From assembly GCA_026387435.1 (NCBI GenBank), contig JAPLLS010000035.1, forward strand, positions 1,692 to 65,691: a DNA stretch of 64,000 nt. The letters run 5' to 3'. Positions 5,369 to 22,795 of this stretch are shown piece after piece (the first letter of the stretch is position 1; every line of letters starts with the position of its first letter). The translations under genes were made by a program, and so were the position numbers. Source of the DNA: Candidatus Omnitrophota bacterium. GTDB lineage: Bacteria; Omnitrophota; Gorgyraeia; Gygaellales; Profunditerraquicolaceae. Below the pieces are notes generated by a model. That model worked only from the letters and a program-made list of their open reading frames with translations, had not been told where the DNA came from and made no database searches.

Positions 5369-6220
5369 TTACACCTCTACCTTGCTTAATTTTCTGATCA
5401 GGATTATGCCGATTATTTCCGAACACGCCGCCCAGATCAAAAGCTTCCGGCCAATAGGGCTATTAAGCATTATATCGAAACTTTCAGGATTCACTTGTTT
5501 TACAAACAAAGCAAAAGCGATCGGCAGGATGCACATGATCAGTCCCTGGAGCCGGCCCTGCACGGTTAAAGCCCTGACTTTTCTCTCCAGCTTGATCTTG
5601 TCTCTGATGGTAATAACCAGCTGGGCGAAAATATCGGTTAAATTACCTCCGGTCTCGCGGGCTACGGAAACTGCGGAAGTTATCAGCCCCAAATCGTCGA
5701 TCGGCATTCTTTTCCTCAAATTATCCAAGCACTCATCCAGCGGCATTCCCATGCTGTTTTCCCTGACTACCAGGGCAAATTCTTCACGCATGGGGTCAGG
5801 CATTTCTTCGACCAATATTTCAAAAGCCTGGTTTAAACTCATCCCCGCTTTTAAAGCGCTGGAAAGGATCATTAAGGCATCAACCAGCTGCCCCTGGAAT
5901 TTCATCCTGCGCCGGAAAGCCAGGTTCTTCATTATAGCTGCGGGGATAATGAAACCGACGGCAAGGCCCGCGCCGATGCCGATAAGAGGGAATTTGCGCA
6001 ACAAAACATACCCCGCCAAGGCTAATACCACCGGGGATATGGTAAAGAACGGCAACATCTTGCGCCCCTGGTTGGCCATGAACAGGCGGTCAAGGCCGGA
6101 CGCGGTTGTATCCATTCTTTTTTTCTGAAGCTTGGAATATTTATCCGTGCCTACGGGAATGGACACATAGGCCAAGTATCCGATCGACCCTAAAAAAAGA
6201 ATGAGGATTATAAATACCAT
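5369..6220 (-). CDS. tadB: TadB-like pilus assembly inner-membrane protein (T2SS-F domain)
   Basis: 283 aa; T2SSF domain signature (…DALMILSSALKAGMSLNQAFEIL…SVARETGGNLTDIFAQL…) with flanking TM segments. Confidence 0.8.
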   Translation of the reverse strand: MVFIILILFLGSIGYLAYVSIPVGTDKYSKLQKKRMDTTASGLDRLFMANQGRKMLPFFTISPVVLALAGYVLLRKFPLIGIGAGLAVGFIIPAAIMKNLAFRRRMKFQGQLVDALMILSSALKAGMSLNQAFEILVEEMPDPMREEFALVVRENSMGMPLDECLDNLRKRMPIDDLGLITSAVSVARETGGNLTDIFAQLVITIRDKIKLERKVRALTVQGRLQGLIMCILPIAFALFVKQVNPESFDIMLNSPIGRKLLIWAACSEIIGIILIRKLSKVEV

Positions 6221-6244: not shown

Positions 6245-6442
6245 TTAATTGCTGGTGTGAAGGGGATCATATTGCCTGCCGTGGCCGAATATATCCATCG
6301 ACTGTTTCCATTTCCCGGAAACAGCCCTTTTCAAGTAGGCAGACATGCCTAAAAGAGCTACGCCCACAACCGCTACAAGAACGGCGTATTCGATTAAGGA
6401 CATCCCTTTTAATGGTCTATATTTCATTTTACTGGCTTTCAT
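6245..6442 (-). CDS. flp: Flp-like (class III / type IVc) prepilin
   Basis: 65 aa; KG|MSLIEYAVLVAVVG leader/processing motif (Gly-1, Glu+5), a single hydrophobic helix, and the M-x-Y-x-KRAVSGKWK motif shared with its paralogs. Confidence 0.65.
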   Translation of the reverse strand: MKASKMKYRPLKGMSLIEYAVLVAVVGVALLGMSAYLKRAVSGKWKQSMDIFGHGRQYDPLHTSN

Positions 6443-6677
6443 GGAATATGTTCATCGGTGTGTTGCCGTTTCCCTGGTTAAAAAAATCGACCCCGGTTGC
6501 CGCGGTGCCCGTATTCATGTTACGGGTAGTTTCGTAAGCATTATGCCGGTTGACTATTCTGGCCCCAAACCAGACAAACATTTTGGTGGCCAGGACAACA
6601 AACAAAACCAGCATCACAAAGGTGATCACGAATTCCAGGCTGACCTGAGCTTTTAATCTCACTTTGGAGTTGTCCAT
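6429..6677 (-). CDS. Minor pilin / pseudopilin-like protein (TadE-like size class)
   Basis: 82 aa; KA|QVSLEFVITFVMLVLFVVL N-terminal prepilin-type segment followed by a short polar domain. Confidence 0.5.
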   Translation of the reverse strand: MDNSKVRLKAQVSLEFVITFVMLVLFVVLATKMFVWFGARIVNRHNAYETTRNMNTGTAATGVDFFNQGNGNTPMNIFHESQ

Positions 6678-7627
6678 GTTTTTGTGGGTTCCGCATCTCC
6701 GAAAGTAACGGTTACGTCATCACGGCCGCTTGATGTTATTATAACATGATTTAGAATTTCTGCACTATTTAATGATTCCGTGCTGGTATAACTATTGGCG
6801 TTTTCCACTAAGCCAAGGGTGCTGTCCCTTTTGATATCTTTATTCACCACTTGTTGTACTTCCAGAGTCGAATTCATTTGGCCGGCGTTTGGATTTAAAA
6901 AGTCGATCACTGCAGGAGGATCTCCCGCATTCCCGCTAACATCATAAACCCCATAATACTCTAGGCCGGACCTGGCGCTGTCATATTTCGTCGAGTCTAA
7001 AATACTTTTTTCACAATAATCCTCTAGGCAATCTGTATCATTCATTAAAACCATGACTTGTTTGGTGCCGTATCCCGGCTCCTGCTGATAAACCTTGGTT
7101 TGCGCCAGACTGCCAATATTGTAAATATCGTTGACTCCCTTAAGAATCGAGTCTGTATTCACTATTATGCTCCCGGGCTCGGGTTCCAAAGCTGCAGTAG
7201 TGTACTCCCGGATAACCGGAGCAACAAGATTGCTATCGGGATTAAAAACATATTGCACTGATTCTGAAGTGTCGAGAGTAGCATAATCTAATGGCGTGGA
7301 ATTATTGCTCCAATAAACTCCCTGTGCTCCCGTCCTTGCTTGGACCGTGCTCCTGCCTCCCAGACCAAACATATCCGTAGGATCGGGGGTTTCCACATCC
7401 TTGCGCACATCCACCACTTGAGCCTTAGGGACATTTGATGCGCTGGCCTTTTGCATAGCCCGGCGGAAAGCCTCCATTTTTGTTTCCTGCTCATAATTGA
7501 ACGACACGCCTTGCGAGACCATATAAGCTAAGACCATAAGAAGCAAAGAACCAAAAACCGCCACCTCGGCGAGGCTTTGGCCTTTATTACCCGGCCGGTT
7601 TTCTTTGATCCAACTGAAGTTTACCAT
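6659..7627 (-). CDS. Large minor pilin-like protein with a prepilin N-terminus (322 aa); candidate tip/adhesin subunit
   Basis: N-terminus …NKG|QSLAEVAVFGSLLLMVL carries the same G|QSxxE(+5) motif as the pilin array. A large polar C-terminal domain follows. Confidence 0.5.
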   Translation of the reverse strand: MVNFSWIKENRPGNKGQSLAEVAVFGSLLLMVLAYMVSQGVSFNYEQETKMEAFRRAMQKASASNVPKAQVVDVRKDVETPDPTDMFGLGGRSTVQARTGAQGVYWSNNSTPLDYATLDTSESVQYVFNPDSNLVAPVIREYTTAALEPEPGSIIVNTDSILKGVNDIYNIGSLAQTKVYQQEPGYGTKQVMVLMNDTDCLEDYCEKSILDSTKYDSARSGLEYYGVYDVSGNAGDPPAVIDFLNPNAGQMNSTLEVQQVVNKDIKRDSTLGLVENANSYTSTESLNSAEILNHVIITSSGRDDVTVTFGDAEPTKTWTTPK

Positions 7628-7953
7628 GGGTTTAAATGCTCGCTGCCTGTTCTGGTCTGTTCTACTTGCTGAGAATCTGTCTCGTCTACTGCGTATTCAT
7701 CACCGTTCGTGATAACCTGGTAATTTGAGATGGCCTCGGAGTTCACGTTGGTCTGGATCGACGATAATTCCATGCCCTCTGAATCATAGGGGTTTTCGCT
7801 TATTTGATCCGCAGCCTGCTTGGCCTTGCCCTCAACAGCCCTTTTCATATAGAACTGCATAGCGATAATTCCTGCGGCTATGATAGCCACCAGGAAAGCG
7901 TATTCCAGCGTAGATTGCCCTTTTAATCTAAATTTTTTCATTGGTTTTTTCAT
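7621..7953 (-). CDS. Flp-like prepilin paralog
   Basis: 110 aa; KG|QSTLEYAFLVAIIAAGIIAMQFYMKRAVEGKAKQ. Confidence 0.6.
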   Translation of the reverse strand: MKKPMKKFRLKGQSTLEYAFLVAIIAAGIIAMQFYMKRAVEGKAKQAADQISENPYDSEGMELSSIQTNVNSEAISNYQVITNGDEYAVDETDSQQVEQTRTGSEHLNPW

Positions 7954-7955
7954 CG

Positions 7956-8477
7956 CTATCTGCCTCCAGCACCGGAGTTAGTTACTCCGCTGCGCCCGGC
8001 AGCTCCGCCGCCGCCGAAACCGTTGCTGCCGCCGAAACCGCCGCCGAAACCGTTGCTGCTAGGTGTCGTATCTGCAAACGTTGGAAATGTTTGCGCATAG
8101 AAGACCGGGCTGTGGATAATGCCGTACTTAAGGTACTCTGCCGGCGGTATAATTACGCTAGAGGATGCGTCAGTAACGCTGCTGTCTTGATTGATTTGAA
8201 ACCTTCTGTCGCCCCTGGCGTATTCATTAGTGATAAATTCCTGGTTAGAAACTGTTACGGTGGGATCCGGCGCATAATCCCACCCTACTGTTCTGCCCCC
8301 CTCTGTTTGCGGGTCTATACCCATGGCCTGTAATACAGGAGACCCCAGGTCATCGCTAGTAGACTTGATAATCCCCTGGATCCCTCTTTTAAAATAGGCC
8401 TGCATCGCAAAAACGGTTATCGCGACGCAGCCTATGAGCAAAGAATATTCCAGGAAACTCTGGCCTTTTCTCATCAT
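7956..8477 (-). CDS. Flp-like prepilin paralog with a Gly-rich C-terminus
   Basis: 173 aa; KG|QSFLEYSLLIG…MQAYFKRGIQG… and a C-terminal GFGGGFGGSNGFGGGGAAG tail. Confidence 0.6.
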   Translation of the reverse strand: MMRKGQSFLEYSLLIGCVAITVFAMQAYFKRGIQGIIKSTSDDLGSPVLQAMGIDPQTEGGRTVGWDYAPDPTVTVSNQEFITNEYARGDRRFQINQDSSVTDASSSVIIPPAEYLKYGIIHSPVFYAQTFPTFADTTPSSNGFGGGFGGSNGFGGGGAAGRSGVTNSGAGGR

Positions 8478-8517
8478 TATCCTTAAATTTTTAGAATCCT
8501 ACCCCAGGCAGCGCCAC

Positions 8518-8847
8518 CTATGGTTCAAGTGAAACATAGGTTGTGCTTCCTTGCGAGGTAAAATTCGAGTCAAAATCGCTGATCCGCTCGCCTCTGTTGC
8601 GGATATCCAGATATGTATTTTGCGACGTCTGGAAATCAGAGCTGCTGGAATAATAGTACGGCTCGTATTGACCGGCTTCAGCGCTCACGGATGCAGCGTC
8701 AACAACGTTCCGATAACGGCCGGAAACCCCCCGCTTGACATAAGTAACCATAGCCACAGCCGCCAATAAAACTGCGGCCAGGCAAAAAGCGTATTCAAGC
8801 GCGCCTTGGGCTTTCCGGCTCCTGGCCGGTGATTTACTGGCCTTCAT
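8518..8847 (-). CDS. Flp-like prepilin paralog
   Basis: 109 aa; …KAQG|ALEYAFCLAAVLLAAVAMVTYVKRGVSGRYRN; Ser-rich C-terminus. Confidence 0.55.
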   Translation of the reverse strand: MKASKSPARSRKAQGALEYAFCLAAVLLAAVAMVTYVKRGVSGRYRNVVDAASVSAEAGQYEPYYYSSSSDFQTSQNTYLDIRNRGERISDFDSNFTSQGSTTYVSLEP

Positions 8848-9160
8848 ACAGATCTGCGCCTGCTCCGGTAGTCCACGTTGCCAAAGCTTCCTGACCCGTC
8901 TTAGAACTTACCGAGTCTGCGTTGAGAGTCGTCGTTGCTACCCCGCCAGCTTCCGATTGATGCGCATCTGAGTTTGAGGTAGACGTTAAAGTGGCGGTAT
9001 ATTTCGCCGGCTCAAACTGTTCTCCCATATTATCACCAGCGGCTTTTAATTTCCCTTCCCAACCGCGTTTGACATAAAACTGCATGGCCAAAAGCCCGCC
9101 GACAATAATTGCTACAACTATAGCGTACTCCAGTGTGCTTTGCCCTTTTCTGTTTAACAT
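8834..9160 (-). CDS. Flp-like prepilin paralog
   Basis: 108 aa; KG|QSTLEYAIVVAIIVGGLLAMQFYVKRGWEGKLK; Ser/Thr-rich C-terminus. Confidence 0.6.
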   Translation of the reverse strand: MLNRKGQSTLEYAIVVAIIVGGLLAMQFYVKRGWEGKLKAAGDNMGEQFEPAKYTATLTSTSNSDAHQSEAGGVATTTLNADSVSSKTGQEALATWTTGAGADLYEGQ

Positions 9161-9201
9161 TTTTTTGTCCCTCCTCGTCTAAATAATTTTTATTAAGCGC
9201 G

Positions 9202-9543
9202 TTATTGGGGTGCTAAAGTAGTATCCACAGCACCGCTTTTTTTCCTGGATTCCTCACTGATCCCGTTGTTGTTAAGTCCGCCGTTATTTGCCCAAACAGC
9301 CTGCTTTGTTGAAGAACTGGTCATGTCCGCTTCGGATTGGACATAATACGGTTCATACTGGGCGCCGTCAAAAGTTAAAACTTGGCCCCCGACATCCGAG
9401 CCAGTGCCGGTATGGTCAACGGCATTTCTCACTCTTCCCTGAAGACCTCTTTTAACGTAAGTCTGCATAGCTGCAGCTGCTCCGACAACCAAAGCAAGCA
9501 GTATCGCGTACTCCAAAATATTCTGCCCTTTGCGATTAAACAT
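9202..9543 (-). CDS. Flp-like prepilin paralog (start placed at the internal Met)
   Basis: ORF 9202..9642 carries an implausible N-terminal extension. The prepilin-type start MFNRKG|QNILEYAILLALVVGAAAAMQTYVKRGLQGRVRN begins at 9543. Confidence 0.55.
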   Translation of the reverse strand: MFNRKGQNILEYAILLALVVGAAAAMQTYVKRGLQGRVRNAVDHTGTGSDVGGQVLTFDGAQYEPYYVQSEADMTSSSTKQAVWANNGGLNNNGISEESRKKSGAVDTTLAPQ

Positions 9544-9586
9544 CTTTTCACCTCCCATTATTAGTTTTGCATTATTTTTACTAAAC

Positions 9587-9763
9587 TTATCCCCCCGCTC
9601 CCGGTAATCTGCCGGTGGCGTCAGAAACAGAACTAGCCGCATCGCTTACCCCAGTGTCCACTGCCGGTTTCAGATACTGGTTTGCCCCGTAGGCAATTGC
9701 CGCTACAACTACCGTCAGGACGATTACGTATTCCAAGATACTCTGTCCCCTTTTATTACGCAT
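9587..9763 (-). CDS. Short Flp-like prepilin (58 aa), not in the ORF track
   Basis: Manual translation: MRNKRG|QSILEYVIVLTVVVAAIAYGANQYLKPAVDTGVSDAASSVSDATGRLPGAGG*. Confidence 0.55.
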   Translation of the reverse strand: MRNKRGQSILEYVIVLTVVVAAIAYGANQYLKPAVDTGVSDAASSVSDATGRLPGAGG

Positions 9764-9802
9764 CTTTTACCTCCCTTTCTTCTGTTTACTGTTTTAGATA
9801 AA

Positions 9803-9946
9803 TTACGGACCCTCGTTCACTCTATCTTGAATGAGCTTGAAATTGGCCTTGACCGCCCGATTGCCGTAGAGATACATCGCCGAAAAAGCCATGGCTACTA
9901 CCGCGATCAACAGCGCATATTCAATTACGCTCTGAGCTTTTTTCAT
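9803..9946 (-). CDS. Short Flp-like prepilin (47 aa), not in the ORF track
   Basis: Manual translation: MKKA|QSVIEYALLIAVVAMAFSAMYLYGNRAVKANFKLIQDRVNEGP* (Ala at -1). Confidence 0.5.
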   Translation of the reverse strand: MKKAQSVIEYALLIAVVAMAFSAMYLYGNRAVKANFKLIQDRVNEGP

Positions 9947-9963
9947 ATACACTCCTGTGTTAC

Positions 9964-10377
9964 TCAGGCACTTGCCGCGTTTATCTCTGCCTGAATAATT
10001 CCCACTACTGCCCGCTGCGCATCTGTTAATGTCCCGTTTATCTCTATTGCCTTGTTCCCGGGATCATAGTTGCTTCTGCCGCTTATCAGTATTCCCGCGG
10101 CCACCAATCGCCTGATCTGCGACGGAGTCAAATAAACACTCGTCGGAATAGTTACCTGCGCATCATAACCGGGGACGATCGGGTCGTTAGGATCGACAAC
10201 GGGAACCGAGATCGGTTTTATGCTCGGGGTCAAGCCAAACGAATTGCCGATAGAAGCCGCAGCAAGATTCCTGCCCGTTTGTATTTTGGTCCCCATGCCG
10301 CTTGAGGCCAACAGAATCGCGGCAACGATCGCTGTAAGTATGATTAAATATTCTAAGATACTCTGGCCTTTTTTCAT
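9964..10377 (-). CDS. Flp-like prepilin paralog (137 aa)
   Basis: MKKG|QSILEYLIILTAIVAAILLASSG…. Confidence 0.6.
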   Translation of the reverse strand: MKKGQSILEYLIILTAIVAAILLASSGMGTKIQTGRNLAAASIGNSFGLTPSIKPISVPVVDPNDPIVPGYDAQVTIPTSVYLTPSQIRRLVAAGILISGRSNYDPGNKAIEINGTLTDAQRAVVGIIQAEINAASA

Positions 10378-10379
10378 CG

Positions 10380-10553
10380 CTAATTCCCCGTGCTTATACT
10401 CGGATCCGCATCCAGTAAACCGTTTATTGACCCTACGGCCGCTTGCGTTCCCTGTTGGACCTTGCTTCCAAAATTGCTTGACGCCGCCATGATCGCGGCA
10501 ATTATCACGGTAATGGTGATCACGTATTCCAGCGTGCTCTGAGCTTTTTTCAT
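10380..10553 (-). CDS. Short Flp-like prepilin (57 aa), not in the ORF track
   Basis: Manual translation: MKKA|QSTLEYVITITVIIAAIMAASSNFGSKVQQGTQAAVGSINGLLDADPSISTGN*. Confidence 0.5.
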   Translation of the reverse strand: MKKAQSTLEYVITITVIIAAIMAASSNFGSKVQQGTQAAVGSINGLLDADPSISTGN

Positions 10554-10555
10554 CT

Positions 10556-10735
10556 CTATGATCCTCCGCCCGAGGCTACGCCCAGCGAGTTCACTATCGA
10601 ATCCGCGGCTTTATCCATCCCGCCTTGTATGCTGCTGTGCATATAGCCCGAAGCTGCCATAATCGCGGCAACGATTACGGTAAGGACGATCACATATTCC
10701 AGTATGCTCTGGCCTTTTTTAATTTTAATCATCAT
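10556..10735 (-). CDS. Short Flp-like prepilin (59 aa), not in the ORF track
   Basis: Manual translation: MMIKIKKG|QSILEYVIVLTVIVAAIMAASGYMHSSIQGGMDKAADSIVNSLGVASGGGS*. Confidence 0.5.
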   Translation of the reverse strand: MMIKIKKGQSILEYVIVLTVIVAAIMAASGYMHSSIQGGMDKAADSIVNSLGVASGGGS

Positions 10736-10745
10736 ATGCCCTTCC

Positions 10746-10916
10746 TTATTTGACTATATTTGCGACCGCCTGAATAAAAGTATTGTTGGCGGCATTTTTA
10801 ATATCGACAAAATTATTATTATGTATAAAGCCTAAAGCAATCGCTACCACTATAATGGTAAGAATGAAGTATTCGAATATTGACTGTCCTCTTTCATTAT
10901 AAGTTTTGTCGGACAT
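10746..10916 (-). CDS. Short Flp-like prepilin (56 aa), first gene of the array, not in the ORF track
   Basis: Manual translation: MSDKTYNERG|QSIFEYFILTIIVVAIALGFIHNNNFVDIKNAANNTFIQAVANIVK*. An AGAGGG Shine-Dalgarno sequence lies upstream. Confidence 0.5.
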   Translation of the reverse strand: MSDKTYNERGQSIFEYFILTIIVVAIALGFIHNNNFVDIKNAANNTFIQAVANIVK

Positions 10917-11269: not shown

Positions 11270-12325
11270 CTATTGATAGGCAGCCAAAGTTTCTTCAAAT
11301 TTGAATAATTGGCCTTCGGGAGTAAAAACTCTTTCCTTATTAATACTGCTGACCGCGAACTTAAAATCGTCCTGCCAGACAATATCGCAGATAGCGTTGA
11401 AACTGAGGGGATAAAGAAATTGCACATTAATCATTGAATCCTTTCTTTCAATTTTGGCGGCAAGGCTATAAAAACGATCGCGCATTGCCGAAAGATCCAG
11501 GAATTGGTACACTGAAGGGAAAAAGGACTGTTGCGCTTTCTTATTCAGGCATATGAGGATTTTTTGATATAAGTCATTGATTTCATTGATGTTCTGCGGT
11601 AAACCCAAGCTGATAAGATCCGCGTTTAGCTGATTAAAGGGCAATTTGGCTAACCGCTCATAAACGGAATCAAAATCTTTAATAGCCGGCTCTTTCCCCA
11701 ACATTCTCAAGATATTGGCTTCATCTTTAAGAAGTGGCTTATAAACTTTCAATTGTATCAGGACCCGAAGGGCATCTTCGCTAAGACCAGGCAGACAAAT
11801 TGAGATTTTTTGGGCCAGAAGTCCGGTCAAACCGAATTTATAGTCAACCATTAAGAGAAATATTGCCCCCCCGCTTTCTATGAGCACGCTTGGTTCGGAC
11901 GTCGACCTAAATTCAATTGATTTAATGCCTTCTGGCTCCAGGGCAATTTCTCTCTTTTCAAATTCCGGATTCGCCCGAGCAGGCGAATAAAAATCCGCGG
12001 CTTCGAAAACCGGCTCTTCCTTTGGGCTGACCCAGTTATCAGCTGATTTTTCCTGGGCTGCCGGTTCTTTGATTATGACCAGCGAAGGAACCTCCTGTCT
12101 CGGCAAAGGGGACAAAGCTGTTTTTTGCCTTATTCCTGGCCTTCCGATCCGATTGCTTAAACTATTTGCTTTAATTATCTTGTTTATTGAAGATTTAGAT
12201 ATTTCTACTTTAAATTCTTCTTTTATTAAGGAAACTAACTTGCGGCAGGAAAACTTGGGATTTTCCCTTTTTTTGCTCAAAATAAACTCTTCTATTTCGC
12301 TTTTTAATTTATACGGTTGGGTCAT
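11270..12325 (-). CDS. Hypothetical protein with an N-terminal helix-turn-helix-like domain; candidate regulator
   Basis: 351 aa. The first ~60 aa (…FSCRKLVSLIKEEFKVEISKSSINKIIKANSL…) resemble an HTH. No DDE or other catalytic motif was recognised. Its own promoter carries three TGGACATTTAT repeats. Confidence 0.35.
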   Translation of the reverse strand: MTQPYKLKSEIEEFILSKKRENPKFSCRKLVSLIKEEFKVEISKSSINKIIKANSLSNRIGRPGIRQKTALSPLPRQEVPSLVIIKEPAAQEKSADNWVSPKEEPVFEAADFYSPARANPEFEKREIALEPEGIKSIEFRSTSEPSVLIESGGAIFLLMVDYKFGLTGLLAQKISICLPGLSEDALRVLIQLKVYKPLLKDEANILRMLGKEPAIKDFDSVYERLAKLPFNQLNADLISLGLPQNINEINDLYQKILICLNKKAQQSFFPSVYQFLDLSAMRDRFYSLAAKIERKDSMINVQFLYPLSFNAICDIVWQDDFKFAVSSINKERVFTPEGQLFKFEETLAAYQ

Positions 12326-12433: not shown

Positions 12434-12778
12434 TTATTCTATAATTATAATTTCATCTTTTATTTGAGTTTTACTGGCTTGAATTGCCCCTTCGGGTAAT
12501 TCAATAGTAGTAATTGCCTTAAAGTAGATCGGGCTTACCCGAAACGGCTTGAACCCGGGAGTTAGGGCGATTACCTGCCTATTGCGGTCCAGGAATATGG
12601 CGTCAAAAGTAAAGCGCATGAAAAAAGAGTGGATGGAATTGGAAGGAGTAATAATTAGGCCTTCGCTTGGCTTAAGGCTGGGGCGATTCAATAGCCCGAC
12701 TAATCTCGAAAAGAATGTATCGGCGGTCTTGGCTTTATCCGCAAGAACCGTGTTGCGGGAACGGTTAATTATCCTCAT
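12434..12778 (-). CDS. DUF192 (COG1430) family protein
   Basis: 114 aa; …ADTFFSRLVGLLNRP…GLIITPSNSIHSFFMRFTFDAIFLDRN… matches the DUF192 pattern. Confidence 0.6.
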   Translation of the reverse strand: MRIINRSRNTVLADKAKTADTFFSRLVGLLNRPSLKPSEGLIITPSNSIHSFFMRFTFDAIFLDRNRQVIALTPGFKPFRVSPIYFKAITTIELPEGAIQASKTQIKDEIIIIE

Positions 12779-14958
12779 TATTTAGGTTTAAAGATATCTT
12801 CGGAAATAGAAATACCGCGTCTTTTGATCTCGTCAAAGAAGGTGGGAAGGTTTCCAGTAGGGGTAAAGTAGCCTTCGACTTTGCCCAGCTCGCCTACTCC
12901 GGTTTGCTTGAAGTCGAATAAATCCTGCATTCCAATATGCAGTTCATCGGTCATGCCGGTCAATTCGCTTATCTGGACGACTTTCCTGGAGCCGTCAGAA
13001 AGCCGGGCAGTATGCACGATCAAATCTATGGCCGAAGCGATCATTTCGCGGATAGCGCGCAAAGGTATTTCTATCCCGCCCATCAAGATCAAAGAGTCAA
13101 GCCTGGCCAGAACGTCCTGGGTGGAATTGGCGTGCAGGGTGGTCATTGAGCCGTCATGGCCGGTATTCATAGCCTGAAGCATGTCCAGGGCTTCCAGGCC
13201 GCGGCACTCTCCGATGATTATCCGGTCCGGGCGCATACGCATGGAGTTGCGGAACAAATCGCGCACGGTTATAGCGCCCTTACCTTCTATATTTTGCGGC
13301 CGGGACTCCAGCCTTACCCAGTGCTGATGATGAAGTTTTAATTCCGCGGCGTCTTCGATAGTGAGGATCCTTTCTCCGTCGGGGATAAATTCGGAAAGGA
13401 TGTTCAAGACCGTGGTTTTACCTGAGCCGGTTCCTCCAGAAACGATGATATTCTTGCGGGATATAACACAGATTCTTATAAATTCACCCATCACTTCATT
13501 AAGAGAATTGATGCGGCACAGGTCTGTTACAGTCATCCGTTCCTGGGGGAACTTACGGATAGTCAAAGTCGGGCCGGTCAGCGCCAAAGGCGGGATTATG
13601 GCGTTAACGCGGGAACCGTCGATTAATCTTCCGTCGACCATGGGCACGGATTCGTCTATCCTTCTGCCCAAAGGCGCAATGATCCTCTCGATTATCTGCC
13701 GGACTTGCCCGTTAGAAACGAACTTCTTGGCAGTCAGTTCCAATTTACCGTTTTTCTCCACATATATCTGGTTTTTATTGTTGACCATGATGTCGGTCAC
13801 CAGCGGATCGGCAACCAGATCCTCAAGCGGGCCGAGGCCGACGGCTTCATCGATCATTTCTTTAATAAACTGCTGCCGTTCGGTAAATGAAGGGACAAAA
13901 CTTTCCGTCTCTTCAGCCAGGGAATTGGATATCGATTTTTTGACCTTTTCTTTCAACTCCCGCAATTTCTTCGGGTCGCCGAGCACTACTTCCAGGCGGT
14001 GCAAATCCAGATCCTGGATGATCTTCAAGTGTATGCGCTGTTTCAACTGGTTGAGCTTGTCTTCTTTGGTTAACTGCTTGGGCTGGAGATTTTCCCGGGA
14101 GGAAAGGCTTAACCCTCCCTTGGTCTCGCTTTCCAGAGCCACTTCAAGGCTCTCGTCGGAAAGAGTCTCGATAATAGCGCCCTCAAGCTTCTTATGAACG
14201 GTAAAAAGCTCCTGGTCGGTAAGCAGATCGTCCGCAAGCTTATCGATCGCCAGCGAAGCCTTGGCCCGGGGATTATCCAGTACCAGCGGGTTTCTTCTGT
14301 TTAAAGCCAGGCATACGGCTTTGCCGTCGGAAGGGATGCGCGCAATTATCTCGCCGGGAATGGCGGATTTGACTTCCAGAAAAGATACGCCCCCCAGACT
14401 CTCTGCGCGGTTCAAAACTACTTTCATCATCCGCAAAGGGAAAGCAAAAGACTGCATGATATCTATGGCCTCTTTTACCTGCCCTACAGAAAGCACATCG
14501 GGATTGACGACAAATAAGATCAGGTTGGATTTCCCAAGGGTGGTAAGCAGGACTTTGGTAAAAACGCCGCCGCCTTCGATTACGATATAATCGTAAATTT
14601 TATCCAGCTGGTCGCATAGCGAGGCGATAAATTTCTCTTTTATTACCCCCCGCTGCCGGATATTCAGGGTTATTGGAAGGAAGTCCAGGCCGCTGAAGTT
14701 ATGGTGCAGGATATATTCCTGGATTTGAGTTAAATTGAACTGATCGTTGGTTTCCCATTCCGGGACAATATCGGCCAGGCTATGGACCGGTTTTAAATCC
14801 ATCAGCTTTGCGATATCTCCGGGGAGTTGCAAATCCAGGTCGACCAGAAGAACTTTGCCGTTGCCTATTTTGCGGGCGAGGCTGGTAGCGATATTAACGG
14901 CCAGGAAGGTTCTTCCTACTCCCCCTTTAGGGCTGAAAATGGCTATTGTTTTGGCCAT
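12778..14958 (-). CDS. Fusion protein: ParA/MinD-like TadZ/CpaE ATPase domain (N) + TadA/CpaF type II/IV secretion ATPase (C)
   Basis: 726 aa. The N-terminal half shows [19 protein letters not shown] (deviant Walker A) and [13 protein letters not shown]. The C-terminal half shows Walker [10 protein letters not shown], an Asp box and a His box [13 protein letters not shown], typical of CpaF/T2SS-E. Confidence 0.75.
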
Positions 14959-14959
14959 A

Positions 14960-16864
14960 TTATCTTTTTTGTTCTAGATTATACACGATAGGAATTTGCA
15001 CCCAGAGATCCTGCTCGCTTATATCCCGCGGGAAAGACGGGTAAGGAGCAATCCGCCTGGCAATGCTCATAGTATTCTCGTCAAGCACGCTATAACCCGA
15101 TGAATCGCTGATATTAGAATCAAGCAAATCCCCGGCTTTGGCCAGGTGCAGATTTAAAACAACTGTCCCTTGCAGCTCAGCCTGCTTGGCTGCCCAGGGA
15201 TAGAAAATATTATTGCTGAGGTATTCGCTGACTAGCTGGACGTATTCTTCGGCCGGTCCACCGAAAAGAACCTCCTGTTGCCCTTCGGCAAAAGGTTTTC
15301 TAGGGGAAACCGTTGCTCCTTTGTTTTGGACAGGGGCATTGCTCTTGGCAAGAACCGGCTGTTGTCTGCCGCCGGCAAAAGATTTTCCCTGCGAAACGAC
15401 CACTCCTCTATTTTGTTTATTGGCAGGGCCGGTTGCAGCAGCTCCTTGTTGCCCTCCGGCAAAGGGTTTTGTTTGTGAAACTACCACTCCCTTATTGTTT
15501 GCCGAAGAATATATCTTGGGAGCTATCGCTTCTTTACCCTCTTCCGGCCGGGAATCAGCTATTTTATCTCCACCGGGCTTAATTTGATTTTTTTTTTCCG
15601 CTTCCCGCTTTTCCGGGCCTTTATCCTCGACCACTGAGGGGGTAACCATGATGACTAACTCGGTGTCCCCCATCTCATCTTCTCCACCGCCCCTTATGGT
15701 AGTCCGGTGGCGGAAAAATACTCCCAAAATCGGGACTTCACCCAGCCAGGGGAACTTCTTCAGGTCTTCTTCGGTCTTTTGTTTGATCAAACCGCTGATC
15801 GCCAAAGTCTGGCCATTGTTAAGATAAAGCTGGGTAGAGGTTGAGCGTTTGCTTATAGGCCAGGCTTTGGCCGTTGGGGCAGTGACTAAGCCCAATACTT
15901 CCGCAGTCCCGACATCGCTGACTTCCACATTAAGCCCGAGCTTTATTTTTCCGTCGGAATTTAAAGAAGGAGACATTTTCAACTTGATCCCATACTCCTT
16001 ATACTCTACGGTATTGGAAGTGTTCGAACTACCGCTTACGCTTTGAGTGGTCATGACCGGCTTTTCCCCTCCGACCAAAAGCTCAGCTTCCTTGCCGCTC
16101 TGGCAAGACAATTTTGGCCGGGAAAGTATCTTAGCCTTGTTGTCTTTGACCATTAAATTCAAGGTCGCTTCCAATTGCTGATGCGTCCATTCACTCACTC
16201 TGAACAATGAGTTCGGAACATCGGCAAGCCTATCCCAACGCGGGGGCTCAGTAAGCAGCACAGACCCGCCGCTTAAAATCCAATCCATGCCCATTTGTTT
16301 AGTATAGCCTTTGTCTACCTCTATGATTTCGACTTCCAGTTCGATGATCGCTTTTTCTTCTTCGATCTGGATCAAATTGGTGGTCCTGGCAAAAAGGCCG
16401 CCCAGCGCGGTTTTGACCCGTTCCATGTCTTCCTTGGTTTTTACGCTGCCTAACAATAAAACTTTGCCTTCGCTGTCAGAGGGTTCGGTAGAAATCTGAG
16501 ACAAATTCAATTCCTTGAGCAGATCTTTAATCCGAGCATTGACATAAGCCATGGCTTCGGTAAGGACCTTTAAACTTGTATGGTGTTCGCCTTTTTCGTC
16601 CCACCAGATCAAGTTCGTAGATCCGGCCCCTTTGCCGACAACCACGATCTCTTTGGTGCTGACCGAAAGGATATCAGCTATCTCGGGCTTGCCGATGACC
16701 ACGCGAGTAGGAGTATTTACGCTGATCGACTTTAACTCGCCCTGATATAAAGTTTCTTCCGAGGAAGAAATTGCCGCCTTTTTTGTCTCCTGAGAAAAAA
16801 CAAGCTCCCTGCCCGGCAATAAAAACAGAGATAGAATTATTAAAAATGCCCGCGCTTTTCTCAT
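14960..16864 (-). CDS. cpaC: CpaC/RcpA-type secretin with a C-terminal repeat linker and TonB C-terminal-like domain
   Basis: 634 aa. It has a signal peptide and a pilus-formation N-terminal region (VNTPTRVVIGKPEIADILSV…). The secretin core reads …NGQTLAISGLIKQ…FPWLGEVPILGVFF…TELVIMVTPSVV. Three repeats of about 25 aa follow (NKGVVVSQTKPFAGGQQ…). The TonB_C-like end reads …QGTVVLNLHLAKAGDLLDSNISDSSGYSVLDENTMSIARRIAPYPSFP. Confidence 0.7.
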   Translation of the reverse strand: MRKARAFLIILSLFLLPGRELVFSQETKKAAISSSEETLYQGELKSISVNTPTRVVIGKPEIADILSVSTKEIVVVGKGAGSTNLIWWDEKGEHHTSLKVLTEAMAYVNARIKDLLKELNLSQISTEPSDSEGKVLLLGSVKTKEDMERVKTALGGLFARTTNLIQIEEEKAIIELEVEIIEVDKGYTKQMGMDWILSGGSVLLTEPPRWDRLADVPNSLFRVSEWTHQQLEATLNLMVKDNKAKILSRPKLSCQSGKEAELLVGGEKPVMTTQSVSGSSNTSNTVEYKEYGIKLKMSPSLNSDGKIKLGLNVEVSDVGTAEVLGLVTAPTAKAWPISKRSTSTQLYLNNGQTLAISGLIKQKTEEDLKKFPWLGEVPILGVFFRHRTTIRGGGEDEMGDTELVIMVTPSVVEDKGPEKREAEKKNQIKPGGDKIADSRPEEGKEAIAPKIYSSANNKGVVVSQTKPFAGGQQGAAATGPANKQNRGVVVSQGKSFAGGRQQPVLAKSNAPVQNKGATVSPRKPFAEGQQEVLFGGPAEEYVQLVSEYLSNNIFYPWAAKQAELQGTVVLNLHLAKAGDLLDSNISDSSGYSVLDENTMSIARRIAPYPSFPRDISEQDLWVQIPIVYNLEQKR

Positions 16865-17814
16865 TTTTTCTTCCCTTCGGATATTAGAGGAATCACTTCT
16901 TTTTGCAGTCCGCGGTAGACTTCTACGGTAACCGGCATTTTCCCCTCTTCCCTGGCCTTGGGGTATAAATATTCGAATAGATTATCCCAGTTAACCGGGT
17001 CGACCTCGGTCTGGGACAGATCAGAATTGGAACGCGTAACCAGCTTGATCTTTCCCTGTTCCTGAATAAAAGAGGCTAAAGCCGCTTCTTGAGGAGTAAG
17101 CGACAAGGTAACTGCATTTGCCGCGGCACTTGTCCCTTTCCCTTTAGGCTGCTCGATGTGCGCTCCGCCCGTATCTGAACCGATGGCCAGCACCAGGACA
17201 TTTTGAAAAAGCGGCACAGTAACTGACTTTTTTTCCTGTTTTTCCGTCTGTCCTCTGGGAGTTCTATTGACAATAGCATCAATAGTAGACCCCGGCGGAG
17301 GGCTGATTATTGCCAAAGCGTCCACATAATCCCCCGGCTGCAGCAATCCCTGAAGGCTGGCGATATTATCGACCAGCACAGAAACCGCCCTTTTGCCGCG
17401 GGGGGTGATTTCCGAGATGATTTTGGGTTTTTCCGGCGGAGCCCCAAGCTTATTCCTGAGTATCTGCTCGCCTTCGAGGATCTGTGACTGGGCGTACACT
17501 CCGACGATGTTAATAGTTGAGGCTATCGCCCCTGGCTGGATATAATCTTCCGGGACTTCCCGGCTGGCAATATCTTCGGCCACGATCGGCACTCCGGGAG
17601 AAATGGTGCGCGCTGCCACCAGAATAGCAACTTTCTTAACCTGCCTGGCCAGCCTTTCAGCTTCCTCGCGCTTCTTGACCGCTTCTATCTCTGTTTTTAA
17701 CTTCAACTCTTTTTCCGCAATATACATGCGGGCCAACACCGCTGCCAGAATACCACAAGCAATAGCAATTACGATCAACAACTTCTTTTTAAATTCCGGA
17801 TTAGGCTGAAACAT
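16861..17814 (-). CDS. cpaB: CpaB/RcpC-like Flp pilus assembly protein
   Basis: 317 aa. It has an N-terminal TM and a SAF-like segment (VAARTISPGVPIVAEDI). It lies immediately upstream of the secretin. Confidence 0.55.
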   Translation of the reverse strand: MFQPNPEFKKKLLIVIAIACGILAAVLARMYIAEKELKLKTEIEAVKKREEAERLARQVKKVAILVAARTISPGVPIVAEDIASREVPEDYIQPGAIASTINIVGVYAQSQILEGEQILRNKLGAPPEKPKIISEITPRGKRAVSVLVDNIASLQGLLQPGDYVDALAIISPPPGSTIDAIVNRTPRGQTEKQEKKSVTVPLFQNVLVLAIGSDTGGAHIEQPKGKGTSAAANAVTLSLTPQEAALASFIQEQGKIKLVTRSNSDLSQTEVDPVNWDNLFEYLYPKAREEGKMPVTVEVYRGLQKEVIPLISEGKKK

Positions 17815-17817
17815 AGG

Positions 17818-18708
17818 CTATTTCACCTTTTCTTGGTAATACGTAACGCTGGTTTTTTTGGCTAATTTGCCATTGAGCTCCTGCATTTTCTGCCGTTGTT
17901 TTATAGACACATAGGTACTCTTAACCTCGTCCCAAACATCATTTAAAGAAGGCACCTGGCCTCCGCGGCTGGCATCAAGCCTGATGATGTAATAGCCCCG
18001 CTTGTCTTTAAACACCGAGCTGATCTGCCCGTTTTCCAAAGAAGGCGAGAAGGCAATTTCGTCAAATTTCTTAAAGTCTGCCCCCCGCTGGCCTTTGGCG
18101 ATAAAACCCAGATCCCCGCCCTTAGAAGCGCTTTCCGCCTTGGAGCGCTCCTGAGCTAATGAAGCAAAATCCGTGCCTTTCAGCAATTCAATGAGGACCT
18201 CTTTAGCCTCGGCTTCGGTAGGCACCATAATTTCGCGGATCCTCCGTTCTTCGGCGGGGCGGAACTGGTCCTTATACTGCGCGTAGAAAGCCTCTATTTC
18301 CTTGGCCGGAGGGTTGGAATCTATGGTTTCTTTACTCAAAAATTCCCCGGCAACCAGGCTTACTTCCACATTTAAAAGCTGCTCTCTGATCTTGGGCTCC
18401 TTGTCAATGCCGTTGGCCTTAGCCTCGATATAGAAAAGATACCGGGGGACCAATACTTCTTTTAAGTAAGCGGTCTTTTCTTCCGGAGTCAATTTCTTAG
18501 GCTCAGCGTCCTTATTGAAGCGGGCATTCATCTCCGCGATCTCCTGGTCCAGCTGTTCCAGGGTAATATACATATTTCCTACTTGGGCAATGATCGTTCC
18601 TTCGGGTTTGACGGAGGGGGTAAGCGCGGTTGCGCCTATTTTCAGTTTTTCACAGCCGGTTAACGAAAAGGCGAGCAGGATCAAAAAAAAGAAAAACGAG
18701 TTTTTCAT
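17818..18708 (-). CDS. Lipoprotein parvulin-type peptidyl-prolyl isomerase (PpiC/PrsA/SurA-like)
   Basis: 296 aa. It has a lipobox LTGC and a rotamase domain …RRIREIMVPT…GGDLGFIAKGQ…FDEIAFS…GQISSVFKDKRGYYIIRL. It lies 4 bp upstream of cpaB. Confidence 0.6.
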   Translation of the reverse strand: MKNSFFFFLILLAFSLTGCEKLKIGATALTPSVKPEGTIIAQVGNMYITLEQLDQEIAEMNARFNKDAEPKKLTPEEKTAYLKEVLVPRYLFYIEAKANGIDKEPKIREQLLNVEVSLVAGEFLSKETIDSNPPAKEIEAFYAQYKDQFRPAEERRIREIMVPTEAEAKEVLIELLKGTDFASLAQERSKAESASKGGDLGFIAKGQRGADFKKFDEIAFSPSLENGQISSVFKDKRGYYIIRLDASRGGQVPSLNDVWDEVKSTYVSIKQRQKMQELNGKLAKKTSVTYYQEKVK

Positions 18709-19641: not shown

Positions 19642-21235
19642 ATTCAGAAAAACCGGCCCGGCCATATTGTTCATCTTGGGAGCATTGATTTTGCTGCTTT
19701 TGCTGAACGCCGCAATGAAAAATACCTTTGAGTTCGACCCTGACGAAGGCACTTACCTTGTTATAGCCAAGCTTTCCCTTCAGGGGTTCAAACTTTACAG
19801 CCAGATCTGGAACGACCAGCCGCCGCTTTTTACCGAACTTCTTTCTTCGTGGTTTAGAATATTCGGCGCCAGCGCGTATTCCGGAAGGTTTTTTAATTTA
19901 ATCTTTTCCCTGTTTCTGCTCTGGGGGCTTTACCGGATTATAAAACTCCGGAGTGGCAGTTCGGCCGCTTTGGCCGCGGGTATTTTTCTGATCTTATCGC
20001 AGGGATTCCTCCGTTTGGGCATTTCGATCATGCCCGGGCTGCCCAGCCTGACCCTGGCCGTGCTTTCCCTTTACAGCGCGACCATTTATTCGGGATCAAA
20101 AAGCAAACCGGCGCTCTTTATCTCGTCGGCTTTTATGGCTTTCGCGCTGGCGACTAAATTTTCCTCAATTATTTTAGCCCCTTCCGTCTTCCTGGAAATC
20201 GGCCGGGCCGAAGAAAAAACCGATAGACCTTTTCCCGCCCGCCCAAAAAATTTTATTTTGCCGTTTTTCTGGCTGATAAGCAGCCTGGTTTTTTACATTT
20301 GCTTTATGTGGCCGTATTTTTATTTGAATTTAAACTTATTTGCCGAACAGCTCTTCAGCCCTCATTTGGCAAAACTAAATATCCCCGGCGCTGATTTTAA
20401 TGTGATCTTTGCGCAGCTTTTACTGGATTATGACCTGGTTTTGCTGGGAGCTGTTGCCGTATTTACAAATCTTCGTTCTGGCGCCAGGCGCAACATCCTT
20501 CTGCCCGCTGTCTGGCTGGGGCTGGCCATTACCTGTTTTGTCATCCACCGGCCGATCTGGTATCATTATTATTTGCTGGTCTCTATCCCGCTTTGCTGGC
20601 TGGCGGCAGTCGCCCTGGGGCAATTCCTTGAAAGGAAAAACGGCAAGAATCCCAAAAGATTCCTTTATTATTTAAGCTTCGCCCTGGTTGTTTTGGCCAT
20701 GGCGCGGATACCGTTTAAATTTATCGATGGCTGCCTTATCTTGAAAGAACCGCCTATAGGAGAGGAAAAAAGAATCCTGGATCTAATATCGAAGTTTAAA
20801 AAAGACGGCCAATGGATGTTCACCGACCTGTCTATTTTCGCCTTCTCGAGCAATATTCTCGTACCACCGGAAACAGCGGTCTTAACCCAAAAAAACCCGC
20901 CCACAACAAAACTCGCGGCATCGGTCTTAAAAAAATACAAACCCGAACTGATATTATTGGGGAGGTTCACGGATTATGACCGGCAAATGATATCCGAGAT
21001 CCAGAAGGATTACCGCAAAGAAAGCGAAATAACGATTTTTCGGCCGGGATCTTTCCCGGTAAGCTCCTGGCTGCCTATCGCAGTATTTTTGACTCCCAGG
21101 ATACAATACCCCGTCAACAAGTGGCTGCGCCGCTTGAACTGGCAGCCTAAGATCCTGATAACGGAGCGGATCGGTTTTTTCTATACTCAAAACCTGACCT
21201 TATTTATCCGCAAAAATAACGCTGATCAATTTTAA
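19628..21235 (+). CDS. GT-C fold glycosyltransferase (PMT/ArnT family-like, GT39/83-type)
   Basis: 535 aa polytopic membrane protein with the first-loop DE motif (…FDPDEGTYLVIAKL…). Confidence 0.55.
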   Translation: MHLLKFRKTGPAILFILGALILLLLLNAAMKNTFEFDPDEGTYLVIAKLSLQGFKLYSQIWNDQPPLFTELLSSWFRIFGASAYSGRFFNLIFSLFLLWGLYRIIKLRSGSSAALAAGIFLILSQGFLRLGISIMPGLPSLTLAVLSLYSATIYSGSKSKPALFISSAFMAFALATKFSSIILAPSVFLEIGRAEEKTDRPFPARPKNFILPFFWLISSLVFYICFMWPYFYLNLNLFAEQLFSPHLAKLNIPGADFNVIFAQLLLDYDLVLLGAVAVFTNLRSGARRNILLPAVWLGLAITCFVIHRPIWYHYYLLVSIPLCWLAAVALGQFLERKNGKNPKRFLYYLSFALVVLAMARIPFKFIDGCLILKEPPIGEEKRILDLISKFKKDGQWMFTDLSIFAFSSNILVPPETAVLTQKNPPTTKLAASVLKKYKPELILLGRFTDYDRQMISEIQKDYRKESEITIFRPGSFPVSSWLPIAVFLTPRIQYPVNKWLRRLNWQPKILITERIGFFYTQNLTLFIRKNNADQF

Positions 21236-22795
21236 ATCGCTTCCCGGCTTAAAATAAAAAAAACTTCTCAGTTCTTTACTGACCTTATCCGCCAAGACCA
21301 AGACTGGCCGGATAACAAATTCTCCGGCGCTGGTCTTTAATTTCAAAGAGGCCTCCTTGTTCTTGAGCACAAATACTGCCTCCTGGCCACCTTCAAGAAA
21401 AATCTGCTTATCAGCACCGTTTTTAAGGCCGCGCGGGGCATATAATGTTAATCCTTCGAAAAATTTAAAACTATACAGAGGCAAATTCTCTACGGCATTT
21501 ACTTCTAATCCGGCATATCTCAGCGGCATTGTACAGCCATGGGCAGCAAGCCCATCGACGTTTTTGCCTCTCCAGGAACTTTTATGCCAGTTATTTAAAT
21601 TAAGCGAATTAACCAGGACCTGCGAGCTGACTAAAACCGCAGGCAGGAAAAATAAAAAGATCAATAGGGGTTTTTTAATTCCTTTAAAAGCTGCCGGCAA
21701 AAGCAGCGCCGGATAAATAAAAAAATACCGGTTGCCGAAAAACCCTATTCCTCCGAAATAATTCAAAGGCCGAAAAACTAACAATACAACTGCCAGAATA
21801 ACCGCCGTAAGCAGAATGCTGTCGCCTTGCGACGTTTGTTCCCGCGGGACACTTTTCCTGCGCCACAGATAAATCAAGATACAGACCGCAGCGGGAAAAC
21901 CGTACCAGAGAATGCCGCTAAACCTCCCGGTAAAAAAATTAACGATGTTGCTTGAAAAAAGCTGTGGAGAGTTAAATCTCATATCCGCTAGTTCAGAAGG
22001 AGCCAGCACCAAGCGGAGCCGTAATTCCTCCAGGCTCTGCGGGATGGCCCCGCCGAACAAAATATATTTAGGATCGCTGTAGGCGAAAAAGGTCTTAAGA
22101 CAATATCTTGTCAGAAGAATAGTAAGGATCAGGCCGAAAGAACAAAAACCAAGCGCCTTTAATAGCTGTTTAATCTTGTTTTTAGCCGCCAAATCCCCGG
22201 CCAGGGGTATCAACATAAGCAGAAATGTTATTTTCTCGCCGGCTATTAAACCGATGATAAAAGCGCAGGCCATTGGCTTATTAACGCTTAACAGAAAAAT
22301 ACACAAACTGCAGGAAAAGAACAAAAAGATATCCGGGGTGACCCAGCTTATATAGGCCGGGACAAAACTGAATAAAAAAAATCCGGCGGCTATTAATAAA
22401 GAAACGCGCCTGCCCAGATAGCGGCGCAAACCAAGATAAGAAAAAACTATGCATAATCCCAAAAGCAGGCCATTTAACCCGGCTAACCCAAGCCGGCCGA
22501 AGATCAAGAAGAAAAAAGCGGCGACCACCGGATAAATTACCGGTTTGGCATAACGCATATTGCCTGCGGCGTCCATCCTTACATATACCCCCACAGGGAC
22601 GGCCTCAAATTTTTCTTTATCCCACCTCTGGGCTTCTTTGTGGTCCAGCACAAGGTCGCCGTCTTTTGCCAGAGAACTGATCATCATATAATAAGAAACG
22701 CTATCGCCATGGATATGCGGACCGGCCCAGGCTGCGAATAAAATTACCAGCAGTAAAACAATGCCAATAATCCTGGTTTCAATTGCCATCTTCAT
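21200..22795 (-). CDS. Polytopic membrane protein, putative GT-C-like glycosyltransferase
   Basis: 531 aa with more than 10 predicted TM helices. The N-terminal loop reads HGDSVSYYMMISSLAKDGD. It is convergent with the preceding GT-C gene. Confidence 0.35.
   Translation of the reverse strand: MKMAIETRIIGIVLLLVILFAAWAGPHIHGDSVSYYMMISSLAKDGDLVLDHKEAQRWDKEKFEAVPVGVYVRMDAAGNMRYAKPVIYPVVAAFFFLIFGRLGLAGLNGLLLGLCIVFSYLGLRRYLGRRVSLLIAAGFFLFSFVPAYISWVTPDIFLFFSCSLCIFLLSVNKPMACAFIIGLIAGEKITFLLMLIPLAGDLAAKNKIKQLLKALGFCSFGLILTILLTRYCLKTFFAYSDPKYILFGGAIPQSLEELRLRLVLAPSELADMRFNSPQLFSSNIVNFFTGRFSGILWYGFPAAVCILIYLWRRKSVPREQTSQGDSILLTAVILAVVLLVFRPLNYFGGIGFFGNRYFFIYPALLLPAAFKGIKKPLLIFLFFLPAVLVSSQVLVNSLNLNNWHKSSWRGKNVDGLAAHGCTMPLRYAGLEVNAVENLPLYSFKFFEGLTLYAPRGLKNGADKQIFLEGGQEAVFVLKNKEASLKLKTSAGEFVIRPVLVLADKVSKELRSFFYFKPGSDLKLISVIFADK

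Follow-up and report, generated by a model that had tools for sequence, protein, structure and literature searches.

We describe here a gene, tadZA, that lies within a 64,000-nucleotide stretch of a contig (JAPLLS010000035.1) from a Candidatus Omnitrophota bacterium, the whole of which is referred to as the window. Omnitrophota form an uncultivated phylum whose members are thought to be ultra-small predators or parasites. The gene occupies positions 12778–14958 (the end coordinate takes in the stop codon) and is a single open reading frame (ORF) of 726 codons that begins with ATG and has no internal stop. Its product joins a TadZ-like domain, a linker and a CpaF/TadA ATPase in one chain, and is very probably the TadZA-fusion motor ATPase of a Tad-type (that is, type IVc) pilus machine. 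An earlier interpretation made from the letters alone (hereafter, the sequence-only reading) had placed a fusion of a TadZ/CpaE-like ParA/MinD domain with the TadA/CpaF ATPase at this position without naming a strand; the ORF is real and lies on the minus strand, as do all features of this protein and of its gene cluster given below, and Pfam, profile, fold and locus data support the fusion.

From its amino terminus, the protein is composed of a MinD/ParA-fold (TadZ-like) ATPase domain (amino acids (aa) 1–256, positions 14191–14958; delimited using Pfam, an AlphaFold 2 (AF2) model, Foldseek and hhalign), a flexible linker rich in acidic and Ser residues (aa 257–297, 14068–14190), a helical bundle (aa 298–373, 13840–14067; AF2 helices at 298–317, 329–351 and 358–373), the CpaF N-terminal domain (NTD; aa 374–475, 13534–13839; structure matches, the AF2 model and Foldseek) and the CpaF C-terminal ATPase domain (CTD; aa 476–726, 12781–13533; motifs, Pfam and structure matches). 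Pfam places AAA_31, CbiA and ParA on aa 3–187 (E = 5e-15 to 7e-8) and T2SSE on aa 372–652 (E = 4.8e-60), which confirms that ParA-type and T2SSE domains share one ORF and that the N domain is ParA/MinD-like by hidden Markov model. NCBIfam likewise recovers the TadA family (E = 1e-99) and MinD (E = 1e-18), both under their curated cutoffs. The AF2 model of the full-length protein (mean pLDDT 68.5), which was also used for the fold search with Foldseek, is confident for aa 1–250 (pLDDT about 85) and predicts disorder at 257–296 (pLDDT < 50), so that about 40 residues separate two confident parts. This linker is the most variable and indel-rich stretch of the family alignment, yet it remains in frame and alignable throughout.

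The C-terminal two-thirds of the protein is, by sequence, a clear CpaF/TadA orthologue. Its T2SSE ATPase motif set is complete, with Walker A (GGTGSGKTT, aa 508–516, 13411–13437), the Asp box (aa 529–540), Walker B (aa 578–587) and the His box (aa 600–612, 13123–13161); GGTGSGKTT, both boxes and the VLLVDLDLQ segment of the N domain had been pointed out by the sequence-only reading, and all are present. The best solved relatives of this half are the Caulobacter CpaF structures 8rkd, 8rjf and 9e24 (379 bits, E = 2.8e-112), followed at a distance by archaeal GspE 2oap (141 bits), FlaI (140), VirB11 (112) and PilT (45), and the alignment with Caulobacter CpaF takes in the helical bundle, starting at residue 28 of 8rkd. 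The top Foldseek matches of the full-length model are TadA/CpaF, and the best NCBIfam match is the TadA-family model TIGR03819 (334 bits, under its equivalog cutoff of 373 bits). This half is encoded alongside a TadB/TadC platform, RcpC, a secretin and Flp pilins, an arrangement conserved in two further Omnitrophota loci (L087 and L088). CpaF/TadA hexamers power both extension and retraction of Flp pili at the TadB/TadC platform.

Some CpaF relatives bear other N-terminal additions (for example, FHA domains or tandem ATPase copies). These resemble the window protein in that an extra domain precedes a CpaF whose own N-terminal region is a linker or helical bundle, and differ from it in the nature of the addition, which is a phosphopeptide-binding FHA domain or extra T2SSE copies instead of a ParA/MinD domain. 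Among the CpaF relatives in the representative library (P0121, P0122, P0123 and P0180), some are called as proteins of 949–1,605 aa with two to four tandem T2SSE modules, which may reflect either genuine multi-ATPase fusions or the merging of gene calls, and one carries a GlutR_N domain ahead of CpaF.

For the N domain, a profile (A2) was built from the N domains of fusions from both phyla, Omnitrophota and Bdellovibrionota. Its best match in the PDB is 3ea0 (118.6 bits), ahead of MinD (75–97 bits), FlhG (88), three FleN chains (66–71) and Soj of Helicobacter pylori (60–64), with other Soj/ParA chains lower. Foldseek agrees, as 3ea0 is the best fit to the N domain (TMt 0.89, root mean square deviation 2.4 Å) within a range of 0.75–0.89 for 3ea0, MinD and FlhG. 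The sequence of 3ea0 corresponds to the C-terminal domain of a protein from Chlorobaculum tepidum (382 aa), named CpaE by JGI, whose gene sits between a tadG-like gene and tadA in a complete tad locus (L090; in order, three flp genes, rcpC, secretin, tadE, tadG, cpaE, tadA, tadB, tadC and prepilin peptidase), and hhalign maps the fusion N domain to residues 128–366 of this TadZ. The two are distant: identity is just 23–24%, and 3ea0 has the P-loop KGGDGGS and derives from a separate protein with an atypical receiver domain (ARD). In a tblastn search of annotated plasmids with the N domain, five of the six best-scoring places inspected were an ‘AAA family ATPase’ directly upstream of a ‘CpaF family protein’ in a tad locus, and the sixth was an FlhG-type gene. 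The A2 profile scores 70–132 bits on six canonical TadZ proteins. By its nearest neighbours and its position, then, the N domain appears TadZ/CpaE-like. TadZ/CpaE proteins bind ATP, hydrolyse it slowly and act early, as a hub from which the machine is nucleated and positioned (PMC6668835 among other sources).

The N domain carries a variant deviant Walker A motif (aa 9–17, 14908–14934; KGGVGRT P-loop), identified from the sequence, the alignment and the NCBIfam model NF047398 (‘KGGVGR-motif variant AAA ATPase’; E = 1e-11, under its cutoff). The sequence-only reading had the arginine right and its place wrong: R16 replaces the P-loop Lys of GK[ST], whereas K11, the lysine known as the ‘signature’ of a deviant Walker A, is still present here and is invariant in the family. 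Together with K11, residues T17, D40 and D42 are all kept. Variable and atypical Walker A motifs are also seen in canonical TadZ proteins (for example, KGGSGTS, RGGVGAT and KGGDGGS).

Given that the window comes from a metagenome-assembled genome (MAG), and that canonical tad loci put tadZ directly upstream of tadA such that one error could merge them, the apparent fusion might have been an assembly or annotation artefact (that is, two genes joined by a lost stop or a frameshift), a concern that the sequence-only reading had itself raised. Independent assemblies answer it. An identical protein (100% match) is recorded under ‘MAG: Candidatus Omnitrophica’, and the 120 best homologue clusters, drawn from NCBI, JGI, ENA and Logan assemblies, span 57–100% identity and 682–734 aa, with both P-loops in one chain in 113 of them; the single-ORF fusion thus recurs, at 715–734 aa, in more than 110 independent clusters across these sources. 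It is also full-length in 80 Bdellovibrionales genomes, closed chromosomes among them, and the linker stays in frame and alignable across the family, as noted above. In Bdellovibrio bacteriovorus, an immunoblot showed the full-length fusion protein (bioRxiv 10.64898/2026.07.08.737194). A merged-gene artefact is therefore effectively refuted and, for practical purposes, excluded. Comparison with orthologous loci, which the sequence-only reading had proposed, recovered the fusion in L087, L088 and a third Omnitrophota locus (L089) as well as in all 80 of the Bdellovibrionales loci, and in the Omnitrophota clusters sampled the fusion is the norm.

About 62 of the best 150 matches among representatives at 50% identity also match the N domain ahead of the CpaF Walker A; these are mostly 640–790 aa long, and many are colinear over query residues 3–724 at 38–53% identity. 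Where members of the distant fusion clusters are named, they belong to Bacteriovoracia, Bdellovibrionales, Bdellovibrionota or an unclassified ‘bacterium’, and the majority of clusters are unnamed. When one distant fusion was used to scan species-representative genomes, a full-length fusion was returned at each of the 80 loci fetched, all assigned to Bdellovibrionales, Pseudobdellovibrionaceae or Oligoflexia, and a further search added more than 120 Bdellovibrionota clusters (733–785 aa) with both domains. The window protein is 40% identical and colinear to one Bdellovibrionales representative (P0148; aa 17–723 against 22–713), and 39–42% identical to the proteins of nine further loci at 95–99% coverage. 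By CpaF-domain identity, fused and unfused members interleave at 57–61%, and a neighbour-joining tree of 150 sequences is indecisive on whether fusion occurred once or several times.

In the window, tadZA lies within a conserved cluster that opens with a PPIC-type peptidyl-prolyl isomerase gene (17818–18708) and continues with RcpC/CpaB (16861–17814), an RcpA/CpaC-like secretin (14960–16864; Pfam and NCBIfam), tadZA itself, a DUF192 gene (12434–12778), a 351-aa syntenic ORF (11270–12325), an array of about 13 Flp-like (pseudo)pilin ORFs (6245–10916) that encloses a 322-aa conserved ORF (6659–7627), and the TadB-like (5369–6220) and TadC-like (4501–5367) platform proteins, both of the T2SSF family. 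The secretin gene stops 1 nt ahead of the tadZA ATG and the tadZA stop and the DUF192 ATG share 1 nt (TAATG), and because of this spacing we regard the genes as a tightly coupled operon. Gene order is identical in L087 and L088, and the shorter contig L089 preserves tadZA followed by DUF192; a DUF192 gene follows tadZA in every Omnitrophota locus inspected, and none was seen after tadZA in the Bdellovibrionales loci inspected. The secretin ends in a TonB_C domain (aa 552–630, E = 8e-14), kept in L087 and L088, which is unusual for an RcpA/CpaC-type secretin. The pilin-array ORFs, putative pilins from their sequence, share an N-terminal prepilin processing motif of the type KGQS(I/T)LEY and a hydrophobic helix, and one of them (8518–8847) scores 23.5 bits against the archaeal Pfam family Class_IIIsignal (cutoff 23.7). 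As for the 351-aa ORF, its weak HTH_32/IS630-like similarity lies far under family cutoffs, and insertion of an IS630-like transposase was rejected because L087 has a syntenic copy at 40% identity and L088 a longer relative in the matching position; by sequence and synteny it appears to be a conserved component of the locus. No second ParA-like or T2SSE gene was found in the window (phmmer with both halves against all ORFs of at least 60 aa), and no prepilin peptidase (Peptidase_A24) in the locus or elsewhere in the window.

Directly downstream of tadC, the window edge truncates an open frame that has 1,300 codons or more (1–3996, minus strand), with a likely start (MNTQDKAV) near 3906 and a weak Peptidase_C39 match (E = 1.8e-7); in L087 the gene annotated at the matching position has a predicted product of 32,492 aa. 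The truncated frame is probably an Omnitrophota giant ORF of the type reported beside pilus and secretion genes.

The sequence-only reading held that TadZ and TadA are separate proteins in characterised Tad systems, a statement that no longer stands: tad locus 1 of B. bacteriovorus encodes an ‘atypical TadZA fusion ATPase’ in a tadZA–tadB operon, described in a July 2026 preprint that credits the prediction of the fusion to earlier work (bioRxiv 10.64898/2026.07.08.737194). That protein consists of a ParA/MinD-like TadZ region with a Walker A-like motif (K/RGGXGXS/T) and no ARD, a flexible linker and TadA; its TadZ and linker part binds the polar hub RomR, the fusion moves dynamically from pole to pole, and the machine is essential for prey invasion (10.64898/2026.07.08.737194). 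The window protein has the same order of ARD-less TadZ domain, flexible linker and TadA/CpaF, with the N terminus only a few residues before Walker A, and its gene likewise directly follows rcpC and the secretin gene (Bdellovibrionales loci read rcpC–secretin–tadZA–tadB). Both also share the absence of a prepilin peptidase, as the B. bacteriovorus tad loci are without TadV and a shared PilD has been proposed (10.64898/2026.07.08.737194). The two differ in phylum and in what follows tadZA, which in Omnitrophota is DUF192, then a conserved ORF and a long array of pilins, with tadB and tadC only afterwards. Unlike in Bdellovibrio, the Omnitrophota locus includes tadC and a secretin with TonB_C, and whereas RomR is a known partner in Bdellovibrio, the Omnitrophota partner is only putative; the window yielded no RomR-like gene.

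The canonical TadZ/CpaE and TadA/CpaF pair (as in Aggregatibacter actinomycetemcomitans, Caulobacter crescentus, C. tepidum L090 and the plasmid loci L081–L086) has the same two modules in the same order (tadZ then tadA) and a tad locus with flp, rcpC, secretin, tadB and tadC; it differs in being encoded by two genes and in a TadZ of about 380–400 aa with an N-terminal receiver-like domain of about 130–150 aa. A looser parallel is offered by archaeal FlaI and FlaH (of the archaellum and Epd-like pili), in which a CpaF-related hexameric motor is encoded adjacent to a poorly hydrolysing P-loop ATP binder (PMC6668835). Among solved structures, only CpaF and archaeal GspE 2oap are closer to the C half than FlaI; FlaH, unlike the N domain, is RecA/KaiC-like rather than ParA/MinD-like and is a separate protein.

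Several observations count against the TadZ-fusion assignment or narrow its reach. The A2 profile reaches just 41.7 bits on Eubacterium rectale TadZ (3fkq), the sole solved full-length TadZ, and it scores 122.6 bits on the plasmid FlhG, inside the range of canonical TadZ, such that there is no clean split by score between the N domain's TadZ and FlhG/MinD relatives. The ARD, the defining feature of canonical TadZ, is absent by sequence from the fusion, so that the TadZ/CpaE domain claimed by the sequence-only reading stands for its ATPase domain and falls for its receiver: the protein starts 8 residues ahead of the P-loop, its homologues all start there, and no receiver-like ARD precedes it. 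By comparison, a receiver-like region of 130–150 residues lies ahead of the ATPase domain in five of six canonical TadZ proteins (the profile alignment begins at about residue 130–150 in five of the other canonical proteins) and in the sixth, the 569-aa Alkaliphilus protein, about 280 residues stand there, the alignment beginning at residue 282. The ARD is the module thought to mediate polar localisation of TadZ. In addition, AF2 confidence is low over much of the CpaF CTD (532–633), the Bdellovibrionales comparison covered 80 genomes other than B. bacteriovorus HD100, including a Bdellovibrio sp. MAG, and polar positioning may mean little in cells of about 0.2 μm (size from PMC10066038).

The absence of the ARD and the weak match to E. 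rectale TadZ would also suit a different origin, in which a MinD/FlhG-type ATPase was recruited independently onto CpaF and the N domain drives membrane or landmark cycling by hydrolysis instead of acting as a slow TadZ hub. MinD and FlhG run a close second in every search, a single-sequence PDB search ranks MinD first, and the canonical KGGVGK[ST] is kept in the Bdellovibrionales members (KGGVGKS in 73 of 79 fusions, with Walker A about 15–30 residues from the N terminus, unlike the KGGVGRT of the window protein) and in 41 of the 120 Omnitrophota clusters (KGGVGKT, compared with KGGVGRT in 64 and KGGAGRT in 7). The fast pole-to-pole dynamics of B. bacteriovorus TadZA fit this alternative too (10.64898/2026.07.08.737194). 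We nevertheless consider it unlikely. The best profile and fold neighbour is a TadZ from a tad locus, the highest-scoring annotated matches sit immediately ahead of cpaF, and across the wider fusion family the P-loop position is occupied by K, R, Q, A, V, T, I or C, with even the KGG lost in places (for example, GAKSGSGT and AREGMGQS). Such degeneracy is as in TadZ and would be intolerable for MinD/FlhG function; it is what is expected of a TadZ-like binder and not of a cycling MinD. The genomic context is not of the MinD type either, as tad genes surround the domain, which forms part of a CpaF fusion instead of a free-standing protein of about 260 aa; no MinC or MinE domains were found across the 64-kb window, nor any flagellar, minC or minE genes near tadZA. 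MinD proper was accordingly rejected for the N domain, on the ground that its gene context is tad. The distinction from FlhG is partly semantic because TadZ has itself been assigned to the FleN/FlhG subfamily (PMC6668835).

On the preferred reading of a TadZA-fusion motor, each protomer of the CpaF motor would carry one tethered TadZ domain. The conservation of K11, T17, D40 and D42 suggests that this domain binds ATP, and it probably hydrolyses it poorly because Arg replaces the P-loop Lys. The N domains may then form nucleotide-dependent dimers or a peripheral cytoplasmic ring with little turnover, which could recruit or position the machine and tie it to a landmark partner. By analogy with the binding of RomR by the TadZ and linker part of the B. 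bacteriovorus protein, the linker and N domain would be the likely contact site for such a putative partner. Fusion would thus fix a 1:1 stoichiometry and ensure co-delivery of hub and motor, and the suggestion of the sequence-only reading that localisation is hard-wired to the motor remains a reasonable conjecture. The pilus itself may serve in attachment to hosts or prey.

The tethered domain could instead be a regulatory pseudo-ATPase that gates the bifunctional CpaF, as a switch between extension and retraction or as a clutch at the platform, without positioning or nucleating the machine. In favour of this role, the P-loop Lys gives way to Arg in this protein and to a variety of residues in others, which suggests that hydrolysis is not required. 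The domain is linked to the helical bundle at the N terminus of CpaF, where other CpaF relatives bear regulatory additions such as FHA, and cells of about 0.2 μm have little need of polar targeting (PMC10066038). Such a role would be compatible with the sequence data and differs from our proposal just in the task of the tethered domain; we think it unlikely, given that the known function of TadZ/CpaE is assembly and localisation of the machine and that in B. bacteriovorus the TadZ and linker part binds a polarity hub (10.64898/2026.07.08.737194).

The architecture is already known: the window protein is an Omnitrophota member of the TadZA family characterised in Bdellovibrio and annotated by the hundreds in public databases, and no new kind of system is revealed. 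What is added is modest, namely that the fusion is standard in the sampled Omnitrophota, that its TadZ part is nearest to 3ea0, and that it sits in a distinctive conserved locus beside an apparent giant ORF. Tad complexes have been reported in Omnitrophota, with TadB and TadC grouping with those of Bdellovibrionales and the fusion unmentioned (Seymour et al. 2023, PMC10066038); the fusion now ties the Tad machines of Omnitrophota to those of Bdellovibrionota, two phyla that the published TadB/TadC trees already group. Bdellovibrio TadZA therefore provides a concrete model for how Omnitrophota may assemble the pilus with which they would contact hosts. As a natural 1:1 covalent TadZ–TadA construct, the protein is furthermore a convenient object for structural work on the position of TadZ relative to the motor, which is still unresolved in Caulobacter tomograms.

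A broader interpretation can be envisioned, to which we give limited credence and which we offer tentatively as a whole. TadZA-type machines might represent a distinct, horizontally shared Tad subtype for cell-to-cell attack or attachment that is common to Bdellovibrionota and Omnitrophota, the Omnitrophota version being coupled to the TonB_C secretin, DUF192, large pilin arrays and the adjacent giant ORF, and the tethered TadZ domains forming the outer cytoplasmic ring seen in Tad cryo-tomograms. If this were true, the presence of the fusion in a genome would mark a predatory or parasitic way of life.

The remainder of the window consists of housekeeping genes, with a few further features. 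A 1,275-aa protein (22779–26606, minus strand) contains a GH3 N-terminal domain along with two stretches of PIG-L (GlcNAc-PI de-N-acetylase), and its gene, which adjoins the Tad locus in L087 too, is accompanied by two large ORFs (21200–22795 and 26603–28807) with no Pfam match. Amid the housekeeping genes lies an ORF with a Bro-N domain, of the phage or mobile-element type (58788–59660, minus strand).

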